DNA of 60,400 nucleotides from Ptychomitrium polyphyllum (GCA_973851085.1 OZ316775.1:23126001-23186400), one strand, 5' to 3'; positions 6,995 to 60,400 are shown, counted from the stretch's first letter. Notes: a model not told the origin generated them from the sequence alone. Numbers and translations: made by a program.

Positions 6995-8005
6995 ATGGAT
7001 AACGTGCTTGGAACATTAGAGAATATATTTGCAACTATTGTAGACCTTCAAGAATTGTTAAACACAGTTCAAACGGAACTTGCCTGTTTTAATATCACCA
7101 ACAATTTGGAGCAACACACTCGGCAAGCTGAAGAATCTAATGGTGATATTCAAAGCCTATATCAAGAGGTTGTTTGATTGCGAGAGAATAGTATTAAAAG
7201 GGAGAGCTTACATCAAACCCATGCAGAGCCAAAGATTAGCATGCTAGACAAGTTCCATGAATGAAGATCAAAATTGAGAGGCTTTGTTCAACAAGTAAGG
7301 CTCTTCCTTAGTTTGCATCAATCTCGTTATCCTGATGGCACAACTCAAGTGGGATTTGTGGCCACTCTTTTATCAAACAATGCACTATCGTAGTTTGCAC
7401 CACTAATGGAGAAGCAGTCACCATTATTGAACAACTTAGATGCTTTTATAGAAGCATTAACATCTACTTTTGGAGACACCGACCGAGAGAAGATGGCTGA
7501 AACAAGGATCCAGAGTCTCCAACAAGGACAGCGCTCAGCTACTACATATGCTACAGAGTTTCGACAATTAGCTTGCGACCTTGATTGGATTGATAAAGCC
7601 TTGGTCACACGATTTCAATGGGGCTTAAGAGAGAATGTAAAGGACTTGCTACTCACAATGCTAAGAGTTGAAACATTGGACGAATTCATCACTCAAGCAA
7701 TAGCAAATGACAATAGACTATTTGAGAGGCGCCAAGAACAACGCTTGAAATGGCGACCAGTACGTCAAAACATGGCTACCACTTCTTTAAGAATATTGGA
7801 AAGTCGACATCAAGGATTGAAACCTATACAAATTGATGCTGCCCAGGGCGAACGTTTGGCTCCAGAAGAAAAAGAAAGGCGTCGAAGAGAAAACCTATGT
7901 TTGTATTGTGGCAAGTCTAGACATAAAGTGCACGATTGCCAAATCAAAGGATTTACCTTTAAGGCTCAAAGCACAATGGTGGAGTTGGAAAACAAGGCTG
8001 TCTAG
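6995..8005 (+). pseudogene. gag with CCHC zinc knuckle, interrupted by stops
   Basis: Retrotransposon gag motifs LQQGQRSATTYATEF and CLYCGKSRHKVHDC; in-frame stops between 7177 and 7406. Confidence 0.9.
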
Positions 8006-8119
8006 TTATATTAGAGACTATGCGACTGGACACCACAAGGAAACCACCATCAAATTAAGGTCTCTTACTACCCTCAAGCCCTACCTCTTGTTTTACATTT
8101 TCTATCAAAAGTAAATAGT

Positions 8120-11100
8120 TAGATAGTGAGGCTCTATTAGACACTAGTGCAACGGCATGTTTCATGGACAAGGATTTTGCAACCAAACATCACATGGTGC
8201 TTCTGAATAAAAAATATCCTGCACCTGTTGAAGTTATTGATGGACGATCTCTTGCATCTGGCAATGTTATTAAAGAAACTCAACTCTTGCAGGTCATTTT
8301 AGGAGATCAGACATCTAAGATTGTCTTCAACATCATTCAATGCCAAAAAAATCCTATTGTCTTGGGCCTTCCTTGGTTTGAATTACATAATCCAGACATT
8401 GACTAGCGCTCACGGAGTGTGGTATTAAGGAAAAGACGTCAAGGTACGAGAAATCTTGGACCATCATTTATTAGAGCTAAGGCATTTATGAGAGCGGCAA
8501 AGGATGAATCAATCTATACCATTTATGCCACGCTAATGTCCAGCTCAACAATAGAGACTAATCAAAACATACCTCGTCAATATCAAGATTATAAAGACGT
8601 TTTTGAAAAGATGAATGCGGATATGTTACCAAAGCACCGGCCCTATGATTGTACCATTGAGTTGCAAGAAGGAGTCCAACCACCTTTTGGACCGATTTAT
8701 AATTTATCACAAACTGTATTGACTGCCTTGAGAGAATATATTGATGAAAACCTTGGAAAGGGTTTCATTCAGCACTCTAAATCACCTGTTGGAGCACCCA
8801 TTCTATTTGTAAAGAAGAAAGATGGATCATTACGTATGTGCGTGGACTATCGAGGCCTCAACAAAGTAACAAAAACAAATCGCTATCCATTACCATTAAT
8901 CTCAGGAATCCTACAACAACTTGGCCAAGCAAAGATATTCACCAAAATTGATCTTAGAGGAACCTACAACCTTGTACGCATCAAAGAAGGAGACAAGTGG
9001 AAGACAGCTTTTCAATCTAGGTATGGTCATTTTGAATACAATGTCATGCCTTTTGGCCTTACTAATGCTCCCGCAGTCTTCCAACATATGATGAATGATA
9101 TCTTCCATGAATATCTGGACGATTTTGTAGTCATTTATTTGGATGATATTTTGATATATTCAAAGGATGAACAAGTCCATGAATGTTATGTACAACTAGT
9201 CTTAGAAAAATTACGCCAGCAAGGACCACATGCCAAATTGGAGAAGTGCCTTTTCCATGAATCATTGGTTGAATTTTTAGGCTACATCATTTTTAAAGGA
9301 GGAATCCATATGAATAACAAGAAAATAAGCACTATCATAGAGTGGAGTACGCCAAGATCAATTCGAGATGTTCAGTGTTTCTTGGGATTTGCAAACTTCT
9401 ACAGAATATTCATCAAGAATTATTCCAAGGTTGCGGCACCATTACCACGTCTTACAGGGAAGCAAAAAATCATTTGGGATGAAGAAGCGGGAAAAGCATT
9501 TCAAAGTCTTAAAAAATCATTCACGTCGGCTCCAATTCTTATTCATCCAAATCCATCAAAGCCTTTCTATTTGGAAGCGGATGCCTCAGATTTTGCGCTT
9601 GGCTCAATACTCTCACAATATGATGAAGATGGCAGACTTCACCCTCTTGCCTTTCGTTCAAGGAAGTTCTCAGCGGCAAAGATCAACTATGATATACATG
9701 ATAAAAAACTACTTGCATTTGTGGATGCGTTTGAAGAATGGCGACACTTATTGGAAGGAGCTCAATATACCATTACGATATACAAAGACCACAAGAGCTT
9801 GGAGTATTTCATGAGTGCGCGCGTTTTGAATCGCCGTCAAGCAAGGTGGAGTATGTTGTTTTCCAGATTTGACTTTGTCATTACCTATCGATCTGGTAGC
9901 TTACAAGATAAGCTAGATGCCTTATCTCAAAGATCTTATTTAGCTCTCCAACTTGGGGATGATGTTTTGAATCAACAAACGGCTATTTTATTGAAGCCTG
10001 AGAATCTTCAATTGAAAGCAACGATTATTACAACAACATCCCATCTTGACAAAATTCGGAAGGCTTTGAACAATGACGTCTTTGTTTCAAATATAAAAAA
10101 GTGCCTCAAAGACAATGGAAATCCTTCAAATAGCAATGAGGACTTTGAATTCCAAGAGGGCCCACTTTATTACAAAAGACTTTTGTATCTACCTCCACGC
10201 CCTTTGCAGTTGAAGATCCTTCAAGCACGTCATGATTTTCCAGCAGCACGACATTTTGGATTCAATAAAACAATGAAGTTGATTGCTAGAGACTATTGGT
10301 GGCCACAAATGTGGAAGTACGTGAAGGACTTTATTTGATCATGCGACACTTGTGCAAGAGCCAAGGTACCAAGGCACCAACTTCATGGTCTCCTCCATCC
10401 GCTTCTAGTGCCAAAGGGCCCATGGTTGTCTCTATCAATGGGATTTATCATGGACCTTCCAAACTCCGATTCTAAGGATTCTATTTTGGTAGTGGTGGAT
10501 CAATTTACCAAAATGGCACATTTCATTGCATGCAATAAGACGGTAACGGGAGAAGAAACTGCCAAGTTGTTCCTAAACCACGTCTATCGCATACATGGAC
10601 TACCAGATGATATTGTATCCGATCGGGGACCGTAGTTCATTTCCAACTTTTGGAGGGCTCTATTCCAGCTGTTGCGTGTAAAGATCAATCTTTCTTTAGC
10701 ACACCATCCAGAAACTGATGGCCAAACGGAACTTGTGAATCAAATTTTGGAGCAGTATCTTTGTTGTAGCATAAACTACCAGCAAGACAACTGGATGGAT
10801 CTCTTGCCTTTGGCAGAATTTGCTTACAACAATACGGTGCATTTTTCAACAACTCAAAGTCCATTCTTTGCAAACTATGGCCATCATCCTCAAACACATC
10901 CATTTCAAGTGAAGCATGTTGGATGTCTTGCAGCAAAGGATTTTGCAATTCAACTTGCTAAAATCCATTAAGAAATTACCTTCCAGTTACAACAAGCTCA
11001 AGATCGTTACAAAACTTATGCAGACCGCCATCGGAAGGACCATCGAAAGTTCAAGGTTGGAGATAGCGTATGGCTCCTTTGACGAAATATACAGACAAAA

Positions 11101-42977: not shown

Positions 42978-44090
42978 TGTTACTACAAGGAATGAATTCC
43001 ATGGCCTCCTTAAAGACCTTAGAATTTCCAATTTGTGTAAAGGCCTTTAATTTAAAGGATGCATGATTTAGGCATTTTTTTGAGGAACCACCTATCACAA
43101 ATATATATATTAGAAGCATTAAGAAAGGTTCTTAGAAAATTTAAGAAGCTTCTAAGAAAGTTATTTCGGCTTAGGAAGCTTCCAAAGAAATTACATTGGT
43201 TCAAAAAGTTTCCAAGGAAGTTACTTTGGCTTAAGAAGTCTCCATGGAAGTTACTTTGGCTTAAGAAGCTTTTAAGGAAGCAATTCAAGGTTGCTTGAGT
43301 ATGATGTAATGCAATAGAAGCTTCCTAAGAAGCTTCTAAGGCTTGTAGTTTTAGATTATATAAGAAATCAAGGCTATAGGAATCTCTAGTCTTAACAATG
43401 CATCTCTTGTGATCTAGCTTAGATTTTTTGACCTTGTCTATGTACCTTGTTATAACTCTTTACTTCTATTATACTTGCACATATCTTGTTTTACATCCTG
43501 GAATCTTGAAGCCTTATCTTGTAGTTACTCTATTTGTAACAGTTTCTCAAAACTGTCATACAACAATACCAAAGCTTGGTCCTTTTTGATAGAGAACAGA
43601 TCACCCCTCTTCTTGAAAGCACTATAGCACTCTAGAAGTTGCGGATTACCCTCCTCTAGGCTGATATTGCCTCTTGAATTTTCTTTGGTTTTTTGTATAT
43701 TTAGTAATTTTTATCTGTTTCCATTTCATTTTTATGCCAAGAGGTAAAGATGTTAATACTGATTCAAAAGAAGCTAAGTTAAATTCCATTATTAATGCCT
43801 TTGAAGCATTGAGGATCAACATCGAGACTTTATCTAAGCAAAACAAAGAATTACACTTGACCATATATAATGGTCAAGGAGCAGAAGCACCGCAATTGTT
43901 ATTCCAAGTTAACTTATGTGCTTCATCATCTAGACTTGATTTTGTAGAAGATAGACAAGTTCAAGCCGAGAATTCAATGTCAACAGCCAAAGAATCAAGA
44001 ATCAGTGTTTTGAAGAAATTTGACAATATACATTCAAAATTTCAAGGCTTTATAAACCAAGTTCAATTTATTACTTTTATTTCAATCTTG
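42978..44090 (+). mobile_element. Truncated gypsy element: one LTR (about 42978-43541) plus the start of gag
   Basis: TG...CA-bounded segment with 30-bp internal repeats and a TATA box like the other LTRs, followed by gag-like KESRISVLKKFDNIHSKFQGFINQV. Confidence 0.7.
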
Positions 44091-46547
44091 ACAGTACCCT
44101 ACAAATTCCTTACATTGTTGTAATGCTATTAATAATTTGATTTAAAATGTAGCAAATTTTTGTTATTTTGTAAATTTTAGTTTATTGTATTTAAAAGGGA
44201 ATTTTAGCACAAGAGAAATGAAGGTTGAATGAAAGGGATCATGGTAAAACCATGGTTTTATTTAGCTTGGAGGTGGAATTGCATCTTGTTTTAGTTTAAG
44301 GTGAGAGGGACCTTTTGATTGTAGTGCTTTTTTGCATGCTTTTCTTATTAGCAGTATTAAGTCACTCGCTACCATTCTACTTAATGAATTCAATAGGAAT
44401 CCAGCTCGGATTGATTTAACAGCTCAAACTTATCCAGTCAACTAAATTCTTGACTTAATGTTTGATTTTGTCTTGACAATCTCTTTATTCTTATTTTGTT
44501 TAACTCCAATTCTTTATTTGTTTTTATTTTAGTTCATTTTCTTATTTTGGATTTATAAAAGTTGGCTTTGTTTTTTTTTTGGAATTTGAATCTAAAAATT
44601 TCTTTCAAAAGAAAGAAAAGATTTACAATATTCTTTTTGATGATGTAGGAAGATAAGAAGCTAAAATAGGAGGATAAGAAGCTGATGTGGAAGTTTGACT
44701 TCCATTTTTTATTTTTATTTTATTGGCATCTTCAACTTAGTATATAAGGCCGTCCTTCTTTGGCCAATATCTAATAGCATACTTTTTAGTTTGAGTTGAA
44801 TTTTGTTTAATTTTTTTTCTTTGATTATAAGCTTTTCAAAATGCCATCACATGCTCCATTTGAAACTAATAAATAACCATGGCTCTAATTTGAATAAAAT
44901 TGATTCAATTGCCTTAAGTTTTAAGAGGAGCTGCTTTGAGTGCTTATAAGTTCTTATAGAAATGATTGTTTTTATGAAAAAATTTAAATGGTATCATCTT
45001 AATTACTTCAATACAAATAATGTAAAAATTTGAAAAACAAAAGGCTTATATGATGAGACATATGAGGTATTTGATGAATAATATACAACAGAGATTGAGT
45101 TGTACTTTTTAGGCTATAGGAGTTGAATGGACAAATTTATAAGGCTGATATTTTGGAAAATATTATTAATAAGATAAAAAAAATGAATATAAAAGTTCAT
45201 ATCTAAATTCACAATAAAAAAAGAGTTATGAGGTGTTCAAGAAGAAGGGGTCTACAAGTTACGGCAGTGGTTTCTCAATTATGATCTGAATTCTTCAACT
45301 TGGATATATTTGTACCCTAAATTTGTTGTAACCTTCAAAAGCTTATAAAATATGCTTCAATGACTCTGTGAGCTGTAGAATCAGTTCATTATAGATTTTT
45401 TTTTTAAATCATGATAAAATTTAACATTGTAGAAGAGATTAGGTCTAATTAGGGTAAAAGAAGTTGAATTATAGTTGTTATTAAAAGAAGTATAAGACAA
45501 GTGGGCAGATGGTCATGGTCCATGACACTTAAGGCCAATGCAAGAATGGAATTATAGAAAGAAAGATGAAATATACAACTTGAATATATTTTTTGCAGAT
45601 TTTAGAGCAGCAACTAAATTTAGAATGATAGTCAAAATTTATAACTGCTGCTAATTTTAGATTTATAGCTATATTTAGCAATTTTAGAGTTAAGAAAAAT
45701 TATTGTTACAATTTGATTAGGAAATTCAAGAATTAGAGGAAGGTATTTAAAGAGTAGTTAGAGTAGTTTAAAGGGGGCTTGGAGGAGCAAGATTTAAAGA
45801 ATTGGAAGTACAAAGAATTGAATTAGTAATATAAAAAGAAAAAGAAATTTCTTAGAAGAAAATCTTAGAAGAAGAGTTTTTGAGAGAATGAGAGAATAGC
45901 AAATAAGTTTAATAGAAGTAGAAAAGAAATAAGTAAGAATTAAGGTTGATGTAGTAGTTTTAGGAAGGAATAGGTGGAGTAAGAGTTAGTAAGTATTTAT
46001 AAGAGTGTAGAAGAGGAGAACAGCTCTAATTTAGTTAGAATTTTGTAGTTTTGTTTTCCATTCTTTCCTTGCAAGCTTGGGGAGAAACGGTACCATGCCA
46101 GCTGGAATGCAAGGCCAACCAGGCTGAGATCTCCGAAGGCGGAACCAGTGGAGTAAAGATTGGTTATGTGAAGATCCATCGCAACTTGTGGAGCTGGAGT
46201 GAAATAGAAAGCAGAAAATGATGGAAGAATCAGCAGCCCTACACTAAATCCACACTATACCAGAGGCAGAAATTGCTTCAAAACGCAAGATTCTCAACTG
46301 CGGAACTGGCAAAGCTGCAAGTACAAGCAAAAGTAATATAGTAGAATTCGGCCATGCGGAGGATCTATTGAGACTTGCGGAGTTGGAATAGAGAACAAAA
46401 AACGGCAAAGGATCCAGCAGTAAGAGAAGTTAAAGGTTTGTTGTAATCTAGTTAGCACAACTTAAGAAACAACAGCCCAAAGAAAAACAACTAGGCCTTG
46501 CTGTCATTTGATTATCACAAAAGAGTAGTCACAAAGCTCACTAAAAG

Positions 46548-46635
46548 TTTAGGGTTTAGGGTTTTAGGATTTAGGGTTTAGGGTTTAGGGTTTAGGGTTT
46601 AGGGTTTAGGGTTTAGGGTTTAGGGTTTAGGGTTA
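46548..46635 (+). repeat. Telomeric tract 1, (TTTAGGG) about 12 units
   Basis: Arabidopsis-type repeat with one TTTTAGGA variant; G-rich strand points towards the window end. Confidence 0.98.
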
Positions 46636-49600
46636 CAAGAGCGTCCTAGAGGTTTTAGGTGTGGCTGGATTCTAAGGTTCTGCGCGACATCTGCACACCA
46701 CGGGATTCGCAATGCCACAAGGATTCCAAAAACCCCAAGCTTTTTTGAAAATTTCAGGTTCTGCAAGAATTAGGGTTTAGGGTTTCGGGCGAGGAATTAC
46801 CCTCGTTCTGACCCTAAATCGGCCCGGGTTCACACACATTCCAAGCACAAGGTTCGAAATTGCAAGTCACCTGTGTAAAGCAAGATCAGATTGACAAGAC
46901 CGTCTACAAATTGAACCCAACTGAGGAGAGCAAAATCAGTTTCACAAGACCGTCCACAAATTGAACCCAACTGAGGAGAGCAAAATCAGTTTCACAAGAC
47001 CGTCCACAAATTGAACCCAACTGAGGAGAGCAAAATCAGTTTCACAAGACCACTGCGGCTATGTCTCAGTCACCCCTGCATAGAGCACAGCACTGCTCCA
47101 CCCGAATGCCACCGGCTTACTGCACTGTCTGGGACCAGGGGCCAGTATCATAGAACGGCCCCATTGTCCACATTAAGCATTGGGCCCGGCGAGTATTCAA
47201 GTAGGGGAGAAATGTGGACCAGAACGGAACCGGCCGTCCTCCAGTGGCGTGAAGACCAGGTCCAAGACGACAGAAATAAAGGGTTCACGGACACCAGCGA
47301 AGAAGCCATAGTTTCTTGTGAAACGGGGACAGAATGCGAGCAATATCCAGGTTGGCCAGTAGTATCTACAGCCCTCATCCCAGGTTCCATCATAGTGCGC
47401 ATGGGCAACCAATTTAGCAAGAATTGAGTTGGAAGAACAAATCTAGAATTTAAACGATCCCAATGGGAAAAGAGCGGTGAGATGGTGAACCTGGGCATTT
47501 TTTCCCGTGAAAGCCGGCCCGTCTTCGTCGCGAAAAGGTCCCAGCTCACGCTCTTCGCGTAATCCCGTCATCGACTGCGTCAATTACGGAATATTTTAGC
47601 GGAGCAGACTCACAGTTGTATCCGTCCTCAGTACTTCGTGCACGCCACCGAGCAGGTCGGAGACACAGGAACCGGGAGAGAATGAGTTCAAAATAAAAAA
47701 TCGTCCAATAACCTGGTCCCCGAGCGAGTGACGCAACTGTCCGCACTTCTGGAATTGGATCAACGAGAACCTAGTTACAACAGAATTACAAAACCAATGA
47801 GCGTCCTGTCGAATGAGCGACCATGAGAACTGGAGAAACGACTCCGTATACAACCATACTAACCCCAACATTGGTGTCGGGTGTCACGTACCTTCTTCCC
47901 TTCGAGACGACGCAGACCAGGATTCGGAAGCATGTCCTCATGCTGCCAAGAGATGAGGGGCGAGGGGGGGTGGGCAAGAAACCGTAGAGGGGACGGAGGA
48001 CGGGACATCGCCAGACCGTAAACCCGGTGCCGCTGCTGGACAGCGGACTGGAATCTCGAGAGCGCAACCCGCAGAAACGTGATACCCCTGGCCTTGTGCA
48101 CACACAGCCCCGGCGGTGCAGAAACGAAGCAGGAGTAAGGTAGTACCACCACCGGTTGCGTCGAAGTCGAGCGCCCCAACCAGGCAGGGCCGGACACAGA
48201 GGTTCACGCAAGCGGGCAGGCAGGCGAAGCGGATAGGCAGGCGAAGGAGGCGAGGGGGCAAGTGCGGAGGGCGTGCGGCGCTCCCAACACCGCACGCTGG
48301 GAGGGGCTGTCACACCCACTCCGTGACGCAACTGCACCACAGTTTTCGGCCGAGCTCCAGTCCACGGGCACTTTTAGGCGGAGCTCCAGTTCACCGGCGG
48401 TGTAGTGGCAGTTCAAGGGCTTTTCCCCTCTTACGCTTGCCACTACGAGTGGTTTTCCTCTTTCTCTTCGCATTGCGAGCGCCCTTCCTCGCACCTTTCA
48501 TACTGCCGGTGGTCGCCCTTTCACTCTCCTACGCTCTGCTGTAAAAATCGGGAGGACCCTGAACCTGGTACGGTCGGAAGGGGTAGGGTCGGAATTGGGT
48601 CTGCAAGGACGGACCGGCTTCCGATACCGGGAGTACTGGTGGGGCCGAAATTGGTCCGGGCTCGCCCCGTACTGGCCGTGACCGTCTCGCACCTACCGGT
48701 TCGTCCAATACCGGAATTGGACCGGGCTGATTCCCCGTAAGAACGGGTGGGACCGCCTAAACCCAATGAATTGGGATTCCTGCGGCCTCGTACCCGTCTC
48801 TTCTCCGATCCCGGTCATCAAAGTGCAACGGGGCATTGCACCGTGGATTAGAGGCTCTCCACGCCAGTTAGGATCTCCGCATGTTGGAGCGTAATCATGG
48901 CGAGCTCTCGGATGGGGACATCCGCCGGCCCGGTGACCGATCCGGCAGGGCTGTGGCATCCCATCCGCGGCGCAAGTCCACCGCAGTTCCAGGCCGAGCT
49001 CCAGTTCACCGGCAGCCTCGGGCGGAGCTTCCGTTGACCGTCGGTGCAGTGGCAGTTCCATGGCATCTTTCTCCCGCTTTTCGCATCGCAAGTGACTGTG
49101 CTTCTGCTCCCCTACGCTCTTCTGTAAGGGTAGGCACCACCGTGTAAGGCACTTGTATATTGTCCTGGGCGGCTCATATCTGCGATGTATTTTCAATTTA
49201 TTTTGCATATATATATTTTCGGTTCATTTTCTCCCAATTCTGTGATGCTGGATCCCTCCGTTACGGCAATCTCCGTGCACATCTGATGGTATCGCATCGC
49301 TCCGTTGGTATCACTCCGTTGGTGTCGGTCGAAGTGTGACGGCTTTACGGTTCTGACTGTGATTTCCATGCTCCGATTTAGGGGGACCGGGGTCGTGCAA
49401 GCGCTCCAGGTGTGGGGGATTTTCGCGTTCTCACCGTGACCCCGCACGTTCCCTGCGTAGTTCTGGTTCACGTTCTGTGCACGTTCAATATATCATCTGC
49501 GAAGGACGGTACCTCGTGGGTCGTACCATCCTCATATGTAGGTCATCCGCATATGTTCCGACAAACAAAAGAATAAGGACGTGGAGCGCTTCGACGTATT

Positions 49601-50086
49601 TCGAATGCATGCCGACAGTATACGCCACATTATCGGAGGAGGTGTGGGACCTGCGATGGGGACCTCCTGATTCCGTGCGGATCGTGACCCACGTTCTTCG
49701 GCGTTCGGAGATCAGGATTCCAGGATGGACGCTGTTGCGAATGTCAGCGGGCGTCCCGGGCGTCAGCCCGGGTTGGGGACCGGATCCACCACCGCCGACC
49801 CACTCCATACAGATATCGACTCCGCGTGCTTCATGATGGATCTCCGTGATCTACACGGCTTGGTCGGAGAGATCGTGCGTCCAGCCAACCGCAGAATCCG
49901 CGTGAAGGATTCCGAATTCTACAGGGAGTGGTTGCACGTCATATCCGACCCGATCGTCGTGAAGGTGGATGCAGGGCTCTCGGATGCGGAGAGGGAGGAC
50001 CAGAAGCGTTCCATCTGCCAGGAATTGCGAAGGGGCCATGGGCTGGCGCTGACTCTCAGCAACCACGACATGGTCCTCGCCAGGAG
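46636..50086. mobile_element. Telomere-embedded GC-rich element, copy 1 (distally truncated)
   Basis: Near-identical to 50228-53878, flanked by telomeric tracts, and ends inside the 517-aa ORF. Confidence 0.85.
46894..47051. repeat. 50-bp tandem repeat, 3 units, in copy 1
   Basis: ACAAGACCGTCCACAAATTGAACCCAACTGAGGAGAGCAAAATCAGTTTC. Confidence 0.95.
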
Positions 50087-50105
50087 TTTAGGGTTTAGGG
50101 TTTAG
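49725..50105 (+). pseudogene. Truncated copy of the 517-aa ORF fused to telomeric repeats
   Basis: First 121 aa match 53517..; the tail LGFRV* is read from TTTAGGG. Confidence 0.9.
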
Positions 50106-50227
50106 GGTTTAGGGTTTTAGGGTTTTAGGGTTTTAGGGTTTTAGGGTTTTAGGGTTTAGGGTTTAGGGTTTAGGGTTTAGGGTTTAGGGTTTAGGGTTTA
50201 GGGTTTAGGGTTTAGGGTTTAGGGTTA
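50087..50227 (+). repeat. Telomeric tract 2, 19 units including five consecutive TTTTAGGG variants
   Basis: 4x TTTAGGG, 5x TTTTAGGG, 10x TTTAGGG, then TTA. Confidence 0.98.
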
Positions 50228-50485
50228 CAAGAGCGTCCTAGAGGTTTTAGGTATGGCTGGATTCTAAGGTTCTGCGCGACATCTGCACACCACGGGATTC
50301 GCAATGCCACAAGGATTCCAAAAACCCCAAGCTTTTTTGAAAATTTCAGGTTCTGCAAGAATTAGGGTTTAGGGTTTCGGGCGATGAATTACCCTCGTTC
50401 TGACCCTAAATCAGCCCGGGTTCACACACATTCCAAGCACAAGGTTCGAAAGTGCAACTCAACTGTGTAAAGCAAGATCAGATTG

Positions 50486-50843
50486 ACAAGACCGTCTACA
50501 AATTGAACCCAACTGAGGAGAGCAAAATCAGTTTCACAAGACCGTCCACAAATTGAACCCAACTGAGGAGAGCAAAATCAGTTTCACAAGACCGTCCACA
50601 AATTGAACCCAACTGAGGAGAGCAAAATCAGTTTCACAAGACCGTCCACAAATTGAACCCAACTGAGGAGAGCAAAATCAGTTTCACAAGACCGTCCACA
50701 AATTGAACCCAACTGAGGAGAGCAAAATCAGTTTCACAAGACCGTCCACAAATTGAACCCAACTGAGGAGAGCAAAATCAGTTTCACAAGACCGTCCACA
50801 AATTGAACCCAACTGAGGAGAGCAAAATCAGTTTCACAAGACC
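50486..50843. repeat. 50-bp tandem repeat, 7 units, in copy 2
   Basis: Same unit as 46894; the copy offset changes from 3592 to 3792 across the array. Confidence 0.95.
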
Positions 50844-53516
50844 ACTGCGGCTATGTCTCAGTCACCCCTGCATAGAGCACAGCACTGCTCCACCCGAATG
50901 CCACCGGCTTACTGCACTGTCTGGGACCAGGGGCCAGTATCATAGAACGGCCCCATTGTCCACATTAAGCATTGGGCCCGGCGAGTATTCAAGTAGGGGA
51001 GAAATGTGGACCAGAACGGAACCGGCCGTCCTCCAGTGGCGTGAAGACCAGGTCCAAGACGACAGAAATAAAGGGTTCACGGACACCAGCGAAGAAGCCA
51101 TAGTTTCTTGTGAAACGGGGACAGAATGCGAGCAATATCCAGGTTGGCCAGTAGTATCTACAGCCCTCATCCCAGGTTCCATCATAGTGCGCATGGGCAA
51201 CCAATTTAGCAAGAATTGAGTTGGAAGAACAAATCTAGAATTTAAACGATCCCAATGGGAAAAGAGCGGTGAGATGGTGAACCTGGGCATTTTTTCCCGT
51301 GAAAGCCGGCCCGTCTTCGTCGCGAAAAGGTTCCAGCTCACGCTCTTCGCGTAATCCCGTCATCGACTGCGTCAATTACGGAATATTTTAGCGGAGCAGA
51401 CTCACAGTTGTATCCGTCCTCAGTACTTCGTGCACGCCACCGAGCAGGTCGGAGACACAGGAACCGGGAGAGAATGAGTTCAAAATAAAAAATCGTCCAA
51501 TAACCTGGTCCCCGAGCGAGTGACGCAACTGTCCGCACTTCTGGAATTGGATCAACGAGAACCTAGTTACAACAGAATTACAAAACCAATGAGCGTCCTG
51601 TCGAATGAGCGACCATGAGAACTGGAGAAACGACTCCGTATACAACCATACTAACCCCAACATTGGTGTCGGGTGTCACGTACCTTCTTCCCTTCGAGAC
51701 GACGCAGACCAGGATTCGGAAGCATGTCCTCATGCTGCCAAGAGATGAGGGGCGAGGGGGGGTGGGCAAGAAACCGTAGAGGGGACGGAGGACGGGACAT
51801 CGCCAGACCGTAAACCCGGTGCCGCTGCTGGACAGCGGACTGGAATCTCGAGAGCGCAACCCGCAGAAACGTGATACCCCTGGCCTTGTGCACACACAGC
51901 CCCGGCGGTGCAGAAACGAAGCAGGAGTAAGGTAGTACCACCACCGGTTGCGTCGAAGTCGAGCGCCCCAACCAGGCAGGGCCGGACACAGAGGTTCACG
52001 CAAGCGGGCAGGCAGGCGAAGCGGATAGGCAGGCGAAGGAGGCGAGGGGGCAAGTGCGGAGGGCGTGCGGCGCTCCCAACACCGCACGCTGGGAGGGGCT
52101 GTCACACCCACTCCGTGACGCAACTGCACCACAGTTTTCGGCCGAGCTCCAGTCCACGGGCACTTTTAGGCGGAGCTCCAGTTCACCGGCGGTGTAGTGG
52201 CAGTTCAAGGGCTTTTCCCCTCTTACGCTTGCCACTACGAGTGGTTTTCCTCTTTCTCTTCGCATTGCGAGCGCCCTTCCTCGCACCTTTCATACTGCCG
52301 GTGGTCGCCCTTTCACTCTCCTACGCTCTGCTGTAAAAATCGGGAGGACCCTGAACCTGGTACGGTCGGAAGGGGTAGGGTCGGAATTGGGTCTGCAAGG
52401 ACGGACCGGCTTCCGATACCGGGAGTACTGGTGGGGCCGAAATTGGTCCGGGCTCGCCCCGTACTGGCCGTGACCGTCTCGCACCTACCGGTTCGTCCAA
52501 TACCGGAATTGGACCGGGCTGATTCCCCGTAAGAACGGGTGGGACCGCCTAAACCCAATGAATTGGGATTCCTGCGGCCTCGTACCCGTCTCTTCTCCGA
52601 TCCCGGTCATCAAAGTGCAACGGGGCATTGCACCGTGGATTAGAGGCTCTCCACGCCAGTTAGGATCTCCGCATGTTGGAGCGTAATCATGGCGAGCTCT
52701 CGGATGGGGACATCCGCCGGCCCGGTGACCGATCCGGCAGGGCTGTGGCATCCCATCCGCGGCGCAAGTCCACCGCAGTTCCAGGCCGAGCTCCAGTTCA
52801 CCGGCAGCCTCGGGCGGAGCTTCCGTTGACCGTCGGTGCAGTGGCAGTTCCATGGCATCTTTCTCCCGCTTTTCGCATCGCAAGTGACTGTGCTTCTGCT
52901 CCCCTACGCTCTTCTGTAAGGGTAGGCACCACCGTGTAAGGCACTTGTATATTGTCCTGGGCGGCTCATATCTGCGATGTATTTTCAATTTATTTTGCAT
53001 ATATATATTTTCGGTTCATTTTCTCCCAATTCTGTGATGCTGGATCCCTCCGTTACGGCAATCTCCGTGCACATCTGATGGTATCGCATCGCTCCGTTGG
53101 TATCACTCCGTTGGTGTCGGTCGAAGTGTGACGGCTTTACGGTTCTGACTGTGATTTCCATGCTCCGATTTAGGGGGACCGGGGTCGTGCAAGCGCTCCA
53201 GGTGTGGGGGATTTTCGCGTTCTCACCGTGACCCCGCACGTTCCCTGCGTAGTTCTGGTTCACGTTCTGTGCACGTTCAATATATCATCTGCGAAGGACG
53301 GTACCTCGTGGGTCGTACCATCCTCATATGTAGGTCATCCGCATATGTTCCGACAAACAAAAGAATAAGGACGTGGAGCGCTTCGACGTATTTCGAATGC
53401 ATGCCGACAGTATACGCCACATTATCGGAGGAGGTGTGGGACCTGCGATGGGGACCTCCTGATTCCGTGCGGATCGTGACCCACGTTCTTCGGCGTTCGG
53501 AGATCAGGATTCCAGG

Positions 53517-55070
53517 ATGGACGCTGTTGCGAATGTCAGCGGGCGTCCCGGGCGTCAGCCCGGGTTGGGGACCGGATCCACCACCGCCGACCCACTCCAT
53601 ACAGATATCGACTCCGCGTGCTTCATGATGGATCTCCGTGATCTACACGGCCTGGTCGGAGAGATCGTGCGTCCAGCCAACCGCAGAATCCGCGTGAAGG
53701 ATTCCGAATTCTACAGGGAGTGGTTGCACGTCATATCCGACCCGATCGTCGTGAAGGTGGATGCAGGGCTCTCGGATGCGGAGAGGGAGGACCAGAAGCG
53801 TTCCATCTGCCAGGAGTTGCGAAGGGGCCATGGGCTGGCGCTGACTCTCAGCAACCACGACATGGTCCTCGCCAGGAGCCAGGTGAACGTCCCCCTCCGA
53901 GCGATGGTGGAAGCGCTCCGGGCGTGCGGCCATGTGGAATGCCGGGTGGGGTTCTATGGCATGAAGTGGGCCTACCAGAAAGCCCAGCCTAGAATCGACC
54001 GCTTCGTGCAGTACCACACGGCCCTCCGCGGGAGAGTAGCTGTGGGGAGGAGGAACCAATTCGACATCGGGACGCTGCTGCCTGCAGCGACGATAGATGT
54101 CCTCTGCTTCGGCGAGGGTCAGTTCGGTCCCGTTCGAAGATTCAGGCAGGGCAAAATACACGAGATGTTCGACATTCCCAACCACGGCTCCCTGGAGTTC
54201 TACCTATCGGGCCACGAAGGGATCGGGAAGGTCAAAATCTACCACGAGCCGTGCCATGATGTCCTGTCCGCCATACCGAGGCACAGCCTGGACGACATGC
54301 CCAAGACGATCCGCACCATGCGCATCCGGGCGGAGCAGATGGAGAAACTATTACGAGCATGGGAAGGGTACGACGGTGCGACGTTGAGGGAACGCCTGCT
54401 GGGCACCAGGATCGAAGTGTCCATCGCACGTGCCCACACAGTCGCGGAGGCCCACCGTATGTGTTCGGACCTGGGGCTGCTGCAATTGCAGGGCATCGAG
54501 AGATTGCTGGGGGGGCCGTTCCGCACCCAAAGCATTTCCGCCCACGAAGTCCTGCACAACCTCAGATCGAAGGTCCGGATACTGCAAGGCCTGGTACTGG
54601 GCGGGAACGATTGCACGCCGAGCATCGCGATGCGGTCCGCCCTCACGAGGGCTCGCCAGGCAGTCGGATGGAGCGGCAAACACATGCGGCGTCACCTCAA
54701 GGACGCTCGGAATTGGGGGGGGGCTGTGGTGGATCAGCAGGTACGGAAAGAGCGTCCGTTGTTCCACTACGACGGTTGGGAGCTGGATGATGCGCACAAC
54801 CGGCCCGTGATCCAGGACTTCCTGGACAACGCGTCCTGGCAGAATCACAGTCGGGCGAGGGAGAGGGACCCCCATCCCACCATGCTGCAGAAGGTGAGAG
54901 GAGGCGGGTACTGGAAAATGGAAGGGGTGTACGTGGATCGGGTCACCGGCGCCCGCCACTTCATCAACAAATACGGCAGGAATTGGAGGAGACATGTGAA
55001 GGCCAAGCCAGAGGGTTTAGGGTCGGACAATGAAACATTCCGTTGTCCAGTGGACTCATTCGAGACGTAG
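53517..55070 (+). CDS. Intronless 517-aa protein of unknown family (possible nuclease or replication initiator)
   Basis: Long intact ORF with globular composition. The two substitutions noticed against copy 1 are both synonymous. Motifs DIDS, FYGMK, FDIG, KIYH and GTRIEV. Confidence 0.85.
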   Translation: MDAVANVSGRPGRQPGLGTGSTTADPLHTDIDSACFMMDLRDLHGLVGEIVRPANRRIRVKDSEFYREWLHVISDPIVVKVDAGLSDAEREDQKRSICQELRRGHGLALTLSNHDMVLARSQVNVPLRAMVEALRACGHVECRVGFYGMKWAYQKAQPRIDRFVQYHTALRGRVAVGRRNQFDIGTLLPAATIDVLCFGEGQFGPVRRFRQGKIHEMFDIPNHGSLEFYLSGHEGIGKVKIYHEPCHDVLSAIPRHSLDDMPKTIRTMRIRAEQMEKLLRAWEGYDGATLRERLLGTRIEVSIARAHTVAEAHRMCSDLGLLQLQGIERLLGGPFRTQSISAHEVLHNLRSKVRILQGLVLGGNDCTPSIAMRSALTRARQAVGWSGKHMRRHLKDARNWGGAVVDQQVRKERPLFHYDGWELDDAHNRPVIQDFLDNASWQNHSRARERDPHPTMLQKVRGGGYWKMEGVYVDRVTGARHFINKYGRNWRRHVKAKPEGLGSDNETFRCPVDSFET

Positions 55071-56432
55071 CGAAACCGGGCCGCATCTGGTCGTGCAGTG
55101 ATCACGTGCATCGGATACTGATGTCCAAATTGCCCCGGGATACTCGGCGTCTGTCGCCGGTGTCCACCTCCGACCACCGTCCGCGTGGTCCCTCAACATG
55201 CGGATCTCCAAAGTTCCGTCGTTGCAAGATGCCGACGTCTCGTCCAGTAGCTAACCCAGCGTAGGGGGGTGCGGGACCCGGAGATGCCGGTTGCTCCAAA
55301 AAGAACCCAGCGCTCGTCGGCTGGCATTACAGTCCGCCGCAGGTTCAGGCAGAGCGACAAGTTCACCTGCGTCTTTTACGCACAGCTTCAGTTCACCGGC
55401 AGTTCTAGGCAGAGCTTCAGTTCACAGCCGGTGCAGCGGCAGTGTCGACGGCCCTCTGTTCCCAACAATGATTCACCAGATGAACTCGGCTCTCTTCCAA
55501 GAGGGTCGAATGTCATTCCCCAGTCAGCCCAAGGAGGCCATAGAGGAGACAGCTGCTGACCGTCGAACGATGATATGTATCGAGGTCTTTCATGCAGTGC
55601 ATTGATGTCCCCAATAAGCTTCGGAGGTGCATCCGGGATTGGCCCCGGTGGAACCGGTATCTCGGTACCGGGTCCGAATTGGGTCGCTTGGACGGACCGG
55701 CTATCCAGTACTGGGGTACGGGTTCCGGAGCCGGTACTCGGTCATGCTCGCCCTGACCCGCAACTCCGAAATCGCAAGATACTGGGAGGACTCTGAGGAT
55801 TGGGAGGAAGTTGGAATGGAACGTAGGTAACCCTGTTTTGATTTCTAGTTTTCCATCCGTCTTCGGGCTCAGGGAATCAGGGGTTTAGGGTACTGGGCTT
55901 CGGGTTTAGGGTACTGGGTTTCTAGGGTTTAGGGTTTCGGAATGGGTCGCCAGGACGGACCGGCCATCCAGTATAGTACCGGGGTTTAGGGGTTGAGGAC
56001 CCGATACTGGTCGGCGCCCTCCTTGAGCCGGTCGTCGTATCCTCGCACTTATATGTCAAATGTGTGTTTGAATGTCCACCTTCCCGTCCCATTTTGTGTA
56101 TCAAGTACGTTCATGGAATATATATCAGATTTTGGATTCGCTTTCGAATTTTTCTTCAGGTGATGGTCCGATGTTCACACTGTCGGAGGTTGAGGGTGGT
56201 TTGGCTCCTTCTCATCCGGTTGTGGCGATTGAAGAATGCAGTTGAGTCAGACCTACATAATCCGCCGGTCTCATGTTCTGTGGATTATATGAACGCCACA
56301 GCTATGAGGCCTTCCGTGCAGTGACGAGAAACTTATACTCAACCATTCACTGTTTCGATTCATAACGCCAAAAACTCCGAGGCTATACAAAAACATCGGA
56401 ATACCTGAACGTGGGCTCGTGGGTTGACGGCA

Positions 56433-56645
56433 TAGTCCGCCGCAGGATTGGGCAGAGTGACCAATTCACCTTCAATTTGTAGGCACAGCTTCACTTCACC
56501 TGCAATTTTTAGGCACAGCTTCACTTCACCTGCAATTTTTAGGCACAGCTTCACTTCACCTGCAAATTTTAGGCACAGCTTCAGTTCACCGGTAGTTTCT
56601 AGGCAGAGCCTCAGTTCACAGCCGGTGCAGCGGCAGTTTGGACGG
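56433..56645. repeat. 30-bp tandem repeat (AGGCACAGCTTCACTTCACCTGCAATTTTT-type) of the intergenic module
   Basis: About 6 units here; diverged versions at 52133-52205, 52770-52850 and 55331-55455. Confidence 0.85.
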
Positions 56646-57297
56646 CTTTTTCTTCTCTTACCGTTCATATCGCAGAGTGATTTTCCTTTTACTTTCCTAC
56701 GCTCCTCCCTGAATAGAGTCACCACACTTGTAGGCGCTATTATATACCATGTGCTCAGTTTATATTGTGGATATGTTTTCAATTCATTTTTGGTGCGGCA
56801 CGTGCTGGTGGGTCCTCTGCCACTGCCGTCCGGGCACATAGTTGATGGTAATGTACCCCTCCATCCGCACGACCCATGGTTTTGATGGAAGTCTCGTGGC
56901 TTTCGCATTCATGGGGATTTCCGTGGTCCGATCGTAGTGTCCAGACCCGATCCTAGAGGTCTCCGACTTGTGCGAGTTTCCGCAGGTCCAGGGGATTTCG
57001 CGGTTCCGATCGTGACTGCAAGTTTTGAGTGTGTTCCCAATCGATGTCCTCTATGTATTCAGTATATTCCCTGTTCACCTCCCACGGACGGCATCTTCTC
57101 GGTCGTACCCATTCCTCCTGTAAGGTATCTGCTCATTCCGAAATAAACCCCCCCCCCCCCCATTACTGCGGCCTGTTTTGATTTTATTTTGATCCGGTCC
57201 GGCAGATCTTGGTGTGAACCACGCCGATCTCTTGACCCGTGACTTTGCAAGCATTCCCTGATCTCCGGGATCCGCTGCAAGGAGGTCGCAATTGCGG

Positions 57298-58480
57298 ATG
57301 GCGCCCATCGAGTGCAGGCAGGATTCCTGGCTCTGGTCGCGAGAGTTGTGGGTTTGGGAATTCATGTTAAAGTGCACGGATGGAGTTCTAGTGCTGGAGG
57401 AGTTCCGGAAGGAAGTGCCCTTTCCAGAAGGAGTTCCCCGACTGACTCAGATGTCCATAATCAGAGATGTCACCGGTCTACTGTCGACTCCTCCGCTCGA
57501 AAGGCACAGCATCAAGCAAGTCAAGCGACTCCTGCGAACCCTCACATATACGATGCTCGTCGGCAAGGATGAGGTGAAGCTGAAGGATACGGTGGTCGGG
57601 GGGCGCCTGAGACATGCCCTACAACCGGAGGACTTCCTCGATCCCATCCGGGAGCTGAAAAACGAGCTCAGAGGGTGGATTCCAGGCGCACAGGACAATC
57701 CCAGACAATACGAGGCCATCCGGGACAAGCTCTCCATACTGGCACAGAGAGCTTGGGCTTCGTTCGGATCCTTGGCGCTCGACGCACCCATACAAACCGC
57801 CGTTGTTGGGAGGCGCCCCCCGGAAGTCCAGCCGCCAGGAGCAGCTCCAGGAGATGGGCCTCCCCTTGCAGGAGCCAGCGGCATCTGCGAAGCTACCAGG
57901 TTGAATGACCTGGAGAACCATTTCAACAGAAGATGCTCCCAACTGGAGCAGCTCATCGCGGAGCAAGCCGACCAGCATCAGCAAGATATCCGAGCTCTAG
58001 GGGCTGCGGGGTTCGCAGTCGGCTCGAGGCAGACCTCCACCGACCAGGAACTGTCGGATCCAGGATCTCCCCCTCCGTTAGTGGGCCCACACCGTGCCGT
58101 GTTCGGCCCCCCCGTGTGCCTGCCTGAAGATGGGCCGAGCCGGGAGGCACACCAGCAGAACGGGAAGCGACTTCTCGAGGAGGACGACCTGCAGCCCAAA
58201 AGCGGCCGAGCGAAGCCTCGAACCCACCAGCGATGAATCCGCCGACCATTTCGTGGCGCCCCCAGCATCCGGTTCGACACAGGGAAGGCAGAGAAGGAAG
58301 TGGACGGACCGGGAGGTAGAGGTACTGAGGGCCGGCGTCAGAAAATACGGTATTGGAAAATGGAAGCAGATCTTGACCAGGTTTCAAGACGAACTACCCG
58401 GCCGCACCAATGTGGATATCAAGGATAAGTACATGGCTCTCATAGGCGTCAAGAAGAAGTACATTAAGAAGGAGGCTTAG
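57298..58480 (+). CDS. Protein with a helical N-terminal region, coiled coil and C-terminal telobox-type Myb domain, split across two frames
   Basis: ORF 57298-58236 overlaps ORF 58094-58480 in the +1 frame. The latter contains RRKWTDREVEVLRAGVRKYGIGKWKQILTRFQDELPGRTNVDIKDKY, matching TRF/TRB-type Myb domains. Likely 5'UTR intron at 57125-57205. Confidence 0.8.
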
Positions 58481-59254
58481 ATTGTAGAGAGTGTGTCGCC
58501 GGAGGGTTCACACCCGCTGTCGTGCTCCCCGTCGGAGACTCGTATGTGGCCACCGGCCCCATTTTGGAATAAGGAAGACGGCGTCCATTACTCGCCGTCT
58601 CTGTATGGGGCCCGAGCGACCAGGTTCGGGCACTCCCACGCGGAACACGACCGGTCTCGAAAGTCGGACGGGATCGGTATCGGTGCAGCCGGAATCGGTC
58701 GCCGCGGAACCCATGTCCCGGTACGGGGTCCGAATTGGGTAGCCAGGACGGAACAGCCACCCGGTACCGGGCTACGGTTCACGGGTTCAGGGTCTACGGC
58801 TCCGGGTTTAGGGTCCGGTATTTCGGTCCAGCGTTCGAATTGGGTCGCCTAGACGGACCAGTCATCCAGTACCGCGGTACGGGAGCCGGGTTCGGGGTAT
58901 CGGGTTCATGGTATCGGGTTCAGGGTATTGGGTTCGAAGTTTCGGTACTGGGTTCGAATCGGGTCGCCCGGACTGGCCAGCCATCCAGTACAGTGCCGGG
59001 GTAGGGGTTCGGGGCCCGATACTGGCCATTTTGTATGTGAAATACGTTCATGAAGTATACATGAGATTTTGGATTCGCTTCTAAATTTTCCTTCGGGTGA
59101 TGATCTGATGTCCGTACCGTCGACCAGGTTTTAGGGTGGTTCGGCTTCTTTGCACCCAACTGTGACGACATCAGAATGTTGTTGAATTAGACTCACATAA
59201 TCCGTCGGCCTCACTGGCTACTGTCGACATTACGTTCCAATGTATACTGTTATC

Positions 59255-59553
59255 TTTATTGTGTATACTCATGCTTCCGGAGAAGGTGTAAGTACGATAC
59301 TGTCACAATCGATGATGAAGGTCATGATCGACTGATGTATTATGCAAGTCGGCAATTGACATCAACCGAAGGGAGTGACACAGTTATGTAGAGAGAAGAA
59401 TCGGCAATTATTTTTGCCTCGGGGAAACCCCTTCATCATATATTCGGAAACAAGACCAGTATCAAGATAAATCACCAAGCACTAGGCTATCGTATCAATA
59501 AATGCAATATTGTAAGCCGAACTGCTCGGTGGATAATACTAGTGCATGTTTTC
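59255..59553 (+). pseudogene. Degenerate Ty3/gypsy-type RNase H fragment
   Basis: Manual translation: FIVYTHASGEGVSTILSQ / (frameshift) DDEGHDRLMYYASRQLTSTEGSDTVM*REESAIIFASGKPLHHIFGNKTSIKINHQALGYRINKCNIVSRTARWIIL. Confidence 0.8.
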
Positions 59554-59680
59554 AGGAGGAGTTATCTCTCTGACTGTGCTTAGAGTGCTGACATTACCTT
59601 CCATCGTCGTACTTGTTGCAACATAAGAAATCAGTGTTCAAGTGGACCAGGGGTTGTAGTAATAGAGTTCATCACTGTCA

Positions 59681-60055
59681 GTGAGGAAAACAAGGGGAAA
59701 CGAGATTCATTTCATCATCACTGGGCACTGGGATTCGGAACGCCGTGTGCCAAGGCGCCCACATTGTGCTCCAGGGTGGTTTGGGGTCATACGACAATGC
59801 AGTGAGAAAGTCAACATGTGTGACGGCACATGCGGCCATGCAGTGGGGGGGGGGGGGAGTCACTTGTGTGACCGGGTTCTCCCACGGTGTAGGAGCTCCG
59901 AACGGGAGTTCGGAATGGTATGGCTTTCGTTCACCGGGCTCAACATGCCCGAGTTGTGGACGGATGAAGTTAAGGCCCGTCATACTTCATCCTCTCGTGA
60001 CGGCCTCATGCGGTATCGGATGAAGACGCGCGAGGCCTTTTCCGAAAGAGCATGA
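59681..60055 (+). other. Possible small ORF or exon of a third element gene
   Basis: Open frame in GC-rich sequence spanning a G homopolymer; no recognisable motif. Confidence 0.25.
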
Positions 60056-60367
60056 AGAATGCAAGTTGATGGTCCATTTCGGGGACCGGGTCTGAGCGAC
60101 CACGAAAACATCAGAACTGTCGAGTGTAAGAACTGTCGAGTGACCAGGTTTAACTGGGTGCCGAAATTCGCCCACAACAGGCACGAAATTCCGAAATTCC
60201 GGGCGCATGCACGTAGGCGCATGCTGACGGACGTGACGGACATGTCGGGTAGAGGGGAAAGCCAGGCCGGATGACATGGCACTGGAGGCGCGGAGAACTG
60301 AGCACAGGACTGAAGATACCGCCATGTGTCAAACCCGGATTGGAACGCCGCAGACGACACCCGCATC

Positions 60368-60400
60368 TAGGATTTAGGGTTTTAGGGTTTAGGGTTAGGG
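60368..60400 (+). repeat. Telomeric tract 3 running to the window end (probable chromosome terminus)
   Basis: TAGGA TTTAGGG TTTTAGGG TTTAGGG TTAGGG. Confidence 0.9.

Follow-up and report, generated by a model that had tools for sequence, protein, structure and literature searches.

At a chromosome end of Ptychomitrium polyphyllum, a DNA element is stacked in two copies whose starts are fixed. Most likely, the junction at which each copy leaves the telomere repeat serves as origin for a telomere-targeted DNA element of a kind that apparently is undescribed. The window, i.e. the whole stretch of DNA that was analysed, has 60,400 nucleotides (GCA_973851085.1 OZ316775.1:23126001-23186400; one strand, 5' to 3'; positions are counted from its first letter). 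Its 3' part leads from AT-rich host DNA through telomere tract 1, unit A, tract 2 and unit B into the terminal telomere:

46548..46634, + strand: telomere tract 1, about 12 TTTAGGG units, with host DNA on its left; ends in GGGTT
46635..50086, + strand: unit A, 3.45 kb, the first part of the element, telomere-capped
46879..47051, + strand: 50-bp array in unit A, 3.5 copies
50087..50226, + strand: telomere tract 2, made of about 19 units, with an extra T in five of these; ends in GGGTT
50227..60367, + strand: unit B, 10.1 kb; may continue past the window
50456..50843, + strand: 50-bp array in unit B, 7.8 copies
53517..55070, + strand: ORF517, 517 amino acids, the longest open reading frame of unit B, with a predicted Rep_trans/Phage_CRI-like domain at residues 27-334
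60368..60400, + strand: terminal telomere tract, reaching the end of the window

Unit A is truncated within the Rep-like gene at about codon 120, and telomere repeat follows directly. Unit B has a GC content of 55% and a CpG observed/expected ratio of 0.93; for the left flank the values are 34% and 0.52. Over 3487 aligned bases the units differ by nine mismatches (99.7% identity), six of which fall within the initial 240 bases, and unit B has four more units of the 50-bp array. At 53066 both carry the same letter, and there the contigs of all four sequencing runs differ from them. Because of this shared letter and the near-identity, the two copies may equal a single duplication; alone they prove little about any junction rule. 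The far ends differ. In unit B coordinates unit A stops at 53878 and unit B at 60367, and a contig of sequencing run X1 ends at 52988; all three run into telomere repeat. Variable, capped far ends fit the healing on short seeds that is described for MoTeR truncations (PMC7367193). In run X1 the contig depth steps down outward from 3738 through 2906 and 2309 to 1921. These values are no copy numbers; the steps are compatible with nested truncations and were not counted as evidence.

Several smaller features of the array were seen. Host DNA passes into tract 1 at 46530-46548 without degenerate subtelomere, resembling a healed break, and the tract includes one TTTTAGGA variant. Repeats of 29-30 bp with the core CAGTTCAC lie upstream of or between the unit B genes (52096-52212, 52740-52856, 55312-55452 and 56415-56646). 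A further internal repeat family with telomere-like letters occupies 55626-56010 and 58682-59025.

The argument centers on the junction and on a motif that follows it:

46630..46637, + strand: junction core GGGTT/ACA of unit A, the proposed nick and joining site
50222..50229, + strand: junction core GGGTT/ACA of unit B
46741..46785, + strand: subterminal motif copy of unit A, from sequence comparison
50333..50377, + strand: subterminal motif of unit B, about 45 bases, shared with a distant family; a candidate Rep-binding site

The original prediction stated that the junction is present in both copies in the same register. An exact sequence scan confirmed this: the 14-letter junction occurs exactly twice in the window, at 46630-46643 and 50222-50235, only on the + strand. 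The claim that poly(A) is missing was likewise borne out, as neither poly(A) nor poly(T) stands beside either junction. The tract had further been described as ending in a non-canonical TTA. The shared register holds; TTA/C, however, is only one of two readings of the boundary. Telomere-compatible letters stop at T46634 and T50226 and ACA comes next. The simpler boundary, and the better reading, is GGGTT/ACA, i.e. the tract ends with GGGTT and the element begins with ACA, because the letters beyond ACA differ between the window and the distant family. The final repeat of the window (60388-60400) is TTAGGG. Thus, six-base variants exist in this telomere and a TTA/C boundary is formally possible.

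The distant family was found among metagenome contigs. Thirty-two loci carried ORF517 homologs at 35-55% identity, and 22 were kept after 10 near-duplicates had been dropped. The proteins of the distant family are about 44% identical to ORF517, with little DNA similarity beyond the gene. Where a tract of at least two telomere units entered unique DNA in these 22 loci, nine of ten tracts ended in TT-ACA; the remaining tract leads into a start of this distant family that is degenerate. Such junctions were present in 7/22 loci, six of them in a single locus (L007), and 15/22 were without one. All nine TT-ACA tracts come from one family, therefore the independent evidence amounts to two families. 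For a match of register and letters by chance a rough estimate is 0.002-0.009. As a control, GGGTT was followed by ACA in 2/40 cases in positions 1-46500 of the window. The junction core is shared by the window and the distant family. A 24-letter pattern from the unit start had no match among the metagenome contigs. The tracts in front of the junctions range in length between about 1 and 19 units.

In the distant family the subterminal motif lies 255-300 bases past the junction. None of 300 shuffles reached its score in three of five comparisons and 92/300 and 21/300 did so in the remaining two; the five comparisons are not independent and the tail of the motif is telomere-like. An imperfect palindrome at 50338-50348 overlaps the motif. 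No common hairpin at the junction emerged when the first 120 or so bases were folded (without shuffle control). Three metagenome loci (L007, 1-5420; L019, 2843-3153; L027, 741-1051) contain stacks of short units that belong to the second, distant family, are non-coding and have just 1-5 telomere units between them. About 310 bases inside these units, directly after the shared motif, a second junction core is located.

What ORF517 might do at such a site was approached via its fold. The alignment for modeling comprised 141 sequences: the one of the window, the seven closely related homologs and 133 from a list of 146 additional matches, 13 fragments, mostly N-terminal, being omitted. The resulting model had a pLDDT of 91.5. 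An earlier model from eight sequences (pLDDT 48) was not used. Among 48,161 representative chains RepSTK1 (4cij), a bacterial initiator of rolling-circle replication, ranked third, with Z 6.7, an rmsd of 4.1 and 187/267 residues aligned to residues 27-334 of the model; the other 49 of the best 50 rows aligned at most 116 residues and were mostly helical bundles. RepSTK1 came first among the best 993 Foldseek matches (Z 6.8, rmsd 4.0, 183 residues aligned). Six TBP-containing entries aligned over the same range with Z 3.4-3.8. According to the structure-comparison tool, Z values under 8 are middling. TBP is the fold given for the Rep_trans family (PMC13107129). Language-model neighbours of residues 24-345 agreed: the best stood at 0.94 with 180 features in common, and the 10 best neighbours bearing a family were Phage_CRI/Rep_trans, with family shares of 10-67%; a third of shuffled proteins likewise yield ten concordant families. 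The C-terminal part of ORF517 is helical.

The Rep_trans site is described as D, RxD, T/SxY/ExG, YxKxxE and RxE with the tyrosine on a strand (PMC5714925, section 10). In alignment A2 of ORF517, candidates for the metal site are D30 (36/38), D32 (35/37) and D183 (44/51). Tyrosine Y242 (59/60), in the context K240-x-Y242, is located on strand 236-243 of the model. Motif IV, RxE, is present as R298 (53/60) and E300 (56/59), and E300 would be the candidate glutamate of a D-D-E metal triad. The order of the conserved residues, D-D-Y-E, matches that in PMC5714925. Motifs I and III are unmatched: RxD is replaced by N-x-F-D with a variable position 181, and YxKxxE by Y-x-E/K-x-x-H with K in 12/58. 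Searches at the level of sequence and profile were negative. No Pfam Rep family was found in any of the 141 alignment members, hhalign of profiles against RepC and six Rep_trans proteins gave probabilities of 0.2 or less, and scans of viral contigs to enrich the Rep-side profile yielded 0 and 1 loci. Foldseek against PDB and viral libraries gave no match with E as low as 0.001; the third-ranking match (E 0.055), an Inoviridae protein without characterisation, is a lead only. A whole-protein Atlas search had ranked clusters labelled RdRP first (0.93, low recognition); the label was dropped because no fold search backed it. We assign a Rep_trans/TBP-like fold with good confidence and predict from the model that ORF517 functions in the manner of Rep_trans proteins. 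Formal membership in the family is not assigned to it because a Pfam or profile match is missing.

The relatives of ORF517 are the 7 close homologs and, with E no worse than 0.001, 181 cluster representatives; those bearing names are from Physcomitrium patens, Ceratodon purpureus and one chytrid. The chytrid homolog (P0110), from Fimicolochytrium jonesii (E 2e-10), is found in two adjacent genes and keeps D-x-D, N-x-F-D, Y and R-x-E. In Ceratodon the homologs KC19_8G000100, 8G000200, VG001200, M758_3G000300 and 8G000500, two of them adjacent, bear numbers which suggest that these five genes sit at chromosome starts. Further homologs are two genes on Ceratodon chromosome 6 and five in P. patens. 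No ORF517 relative was found in viral contigs, plasmids or PDB sequences, nor in PHROGs, where three homologs gave weak matches (E 0.01 or worse). Among the 22 metagenome loci, open frames of at least 489 amino acids occurred in 3/6 loci with a telomere tract and in 0/16 without one (Fisher p 0.013; 0.025 when four short contigs are left out). Such an association is what active copies residing at chromosome ends would produce. In two of these three loci, L001 and L003, the gene is directed away from the terminal tract. Broken gene copies were seen far from tracts in L009, L021, L029 and other long loci, two of them with ordinary genes nearby, a GST in L009 and an enoyl-CoA hydratase in L021. 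Such copies distant from telomeres are likely internalised relics. In sequencing run X1 a low-depth contig is about 88% identical across ORF517 (53616-55007), so the sample seems to contain another subfamily as well. Contigs of run X5 gave short matches resembling a more distant homolog.

Downstream of ORF517 the unit carries a Myb-type sequence:

57292..58236, + strand: ORF314; the homolog search was empty
58292..58435, + strand: Myb domain of the TRF/telobox type, Pfam PF00249, E 7e-9

The frame containing the Myb domain (58082-58480) overlaps the end of ORF314, which is probably the upstream portion of the Myb gene, linked via an intron or a frameshift. Telomere-repeat-binding proteins make up the best 17 of the PDB matches of the domain and 21/33 overall. 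With respect to the Myb proteins TRF1, TRF2 and TBP1, the matches have KDRWR whereas KDKYM is present here (one motif residue differs). In contrast to these proteins, the Myb domain sits within a mobile unit and its upstream part is without homolog. Three matches (P0168-P0170) share the Myb domain with the frame of the window. Homologs of ORF314 were not found, and the two of the three matches that were compared shared nothing with it. In the homolog loci, which are mostly short, no Myb gene was seen.

Taken together, the junction, the fold and the far ends are best accommodated by a telomere-targeted rolling-circle DNA element in which a predicted tyrosine nickase joins the 5' end to a telomeric 3'-OH and telomerase heals distal breaks; we consider this rather probable. 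The original prediction had offered two mechanisms, and the one supported is a nuclease acting at a fixed telomere register, since ORF517 in the unit is predicted to be a tyrosine nickase and the distant family has the same register. Rep_trans enzymes nick one strand, hold on to its 5' phosphate and are able to link this to a 3'-OH again (PMC5714925). ORF517 would cut the G-rich strand at GGGTT/ACA and Tyr242 would remain attached to the 5' end (ACA...). A host polymerase would extend the freed GGGTT-3'OH. The + strand would be displaced either as far as the chromosome end, in which case it would bring its cap along, or up to the next junction, giving a circle. The bound 5' end would be joined to a telomeric 3'-OH of the same register, again ending in GGGTT, on the same or another chromosome; the transfer may be direct or proceed through a circle. 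Because the left half of the origin is telomere repeat, each insertion would rebuild a full origin. Joining in the same register would thus produce the observed junction, restore the origin, make poly(A) unneeded and leave the far end variable. A terminator would not be required as telomerase would heal broken far ends. The Myb protein may help to direct the complex to telomeres. Copying onto telomeres would likely follow a DNA route that is, as far as is apparent, undescribed. Whichever model applies, recombination probably contributes to the shape of the arrays.

The nearest known systems are Rep_trans (PF02486; pT181 RepC, RepSTK1 and the ICEBs1/Tn916 relaxases), Phage_CRI (PF05144; M13) and archaeal Rep-Arvir. 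With these, ORF517 shares the predicted TBP-like fold, the tyrosine on a strand and the order D-D-Y-RxE. It differs from them by its eukaryotic chromosomal host, the missing Pfam or profile match, altered motifs I and III, long insertions, the helical C-terminal part and an origin of which one half is telomere repeat. Rep_trans is described as confined to bacteria, its sister family being archaeal (PMC13107129, 2026). The logic proposed for the element resembles that of IS91, Helitrons and Replitrons, transposons mobilised by Rep proteins, which have one fixed end and insert in an oriented, site-specific manner, usually without target duplication (PMC10288648). A fixed register as in these systems is present here, and a target duplication would be indiscernible inside telomere repeats. 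They use HUH endonucleases (PMC10288648), however, whereas the fold of ORF517 is predicted to be unrelated and TBP-like; an HUH Rep transposase was not matched by Pfam in the frames of unit B. The target also sets the element apart, since it is the telomere and the string "telomer" does not occur in the main text of the Replitron paper (PMC10288648). In the open-licence literature, supplements and repeat databases aside, we found no report of a eukaryotic or telomeric Rep_trans-like element.

Alternatively, the units could be a subtelomeric repeat comparable to yeast Y', spread by break-induced replication or gene conversion of the host, with the Rep-like gene as a passenger or relic and the junction merely copied along with the unit. 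Y' also forms tandems of kb-size units that alternate with interstitial telomeric tracts; it contains a short internal array as well as an open reading frame of its own, and spreads by recombination (PMC13177704); similar recombination-spread tandem arrays are reported for MoTeR (PMC7367193). The near-identity of units A and B and the clustering of their mismatches at the start suggest conversion. Y', however, encodes a helicase, and none was detected in the 106 frames of unit B (10.1 kb; the unit may continue), the copies of which are variably truncated. Recombination would leave the same register, the ACA and the subterminal motif in a distant family unexplained, as well as the kept putative catalytic residues and the open frames at telomeres, and we consider this explanation unlikely. 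Still less probable is a plasmid- or virus-like circle with a telomere-containing rolling-circle origin, which would enter telomeres by homologous recombination while the enzyme serves replication only. Rep_trans proteins initiate the replication of plasmids and phages (PMC5714925), the unit is distinguished from its flank by high GC and lack of CpG depletion, and the tract length ahead of the junction varies, all of which would suit such a circle. Against it, neither a defined right end nor a circle joint was seen (in contigs covering 50850-55870 only), and searches of viral contigs, plasmids and PHROGs yielded no ORF517 relative.

The other mechanism in the original prediction was annealing of the chromosome overhang to the terminus of the element, which then would prime copying of RNA. 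That the minus strand can pair with the overhang is true of anything adjoining a telomere tract. This option was not supported. A reverse transcriptase was detected neither in the 106 frames of at least 55 amino acids in unit B (the 10.1 kb in the window; the unit may continue) nor in 51 frames of at least 110 amino acids in 17 homolog loci (most frames inside the homolog gene were omitted). Rfam families had no match at E 1 in 44000-60400, a hammerhead core was absent from both strands of the first 1.6 kb, and the genes read toward the chromosome end. These results equally bear on an endonuclease-free Penelope-like element (Athena, Coprina, Terminon) or another telomeric retroelement, whose minus-strand RNA would anneal to the overhang, with the reverse transcriptase encoded further out or in trans. 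Such elements, and MoTeR, share with the units telomere targeting, a fixed end and truncated ends healed on short seeds (PMC8557442, PMC7367193); the layout with a fixed telomere end, truncated and capped other ends and no poly(A) is the same, and the mode of attachment is reported in PMC8557442. The absence of a reverse transcriptase and of a hammerhead in the frames and region searched, together with the gene orientation, separates the units from these elements. Telomeric elements of the Penelope-like type carry the reverse transcriptase beside the fixed end. Here, the 3.3 kb beside the fixed end are without one, and the RdRP feature match was unsupported by fold searches. Such a retroelement is very improbable. 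An assembly artefact or a chance register, finally, is hardly credible. The truncation point of unit A is absent among the 19 of 40 loose ends that were listed, and assembly ends are error-prone; yet unrelated metagenome contigs have the same structure, units A and B differ at nine sites and the unit is present in four runs.

In the cited papers the telomere-targeting elements are retroelements or repeats spread by recombination, and the eukaryotic rolling-circle transposons are of the HUH type. We regard it as evenly balanced whether the element represents a new class of eukaryotic mobile DNA, a rolling-circle type with a non-HUH tyrosine nickase of TBP fold, a telomere half-origin and, here, its own telomere-binding Myb protein, lengthening chromosome ends by its copies, widespread in mosses and with relatives in fungi. 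If so, telomeres would be targeted by a DNA-based process and the Rep_trans superfamily would extend to the third domain of life. It would also mean a telomerase-free route of chromosome-end extension and a nickase-ligase with a telomere-register target. BAL31-resistant telomeric bands have been reported in mosses (PMC10856949); as a hypothesis, such arrays might be behind them.

Other observations concern the neighborhood and variant copies. Left of tract 1, at 7406-10338, the window contains gag and pol frames of an ordinary Ty3-type LTR retrotransposon (Pfam Retrotrans_gag, RVT_1, RNase H and integrase zinc finger). A contig of run X2 joins position 51247 to the reverse complement of about 56945-56972 and thus is a rearranged copy. 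In runs X1 and X2 a high-depth contig exits the unit at 55711 into C-rich telomere repeat; read on the minus strand, this is a telomere tract followed by GGGTACTGG. The exit may represent another type of junction, or else a portion of the full element in inverted orientation.
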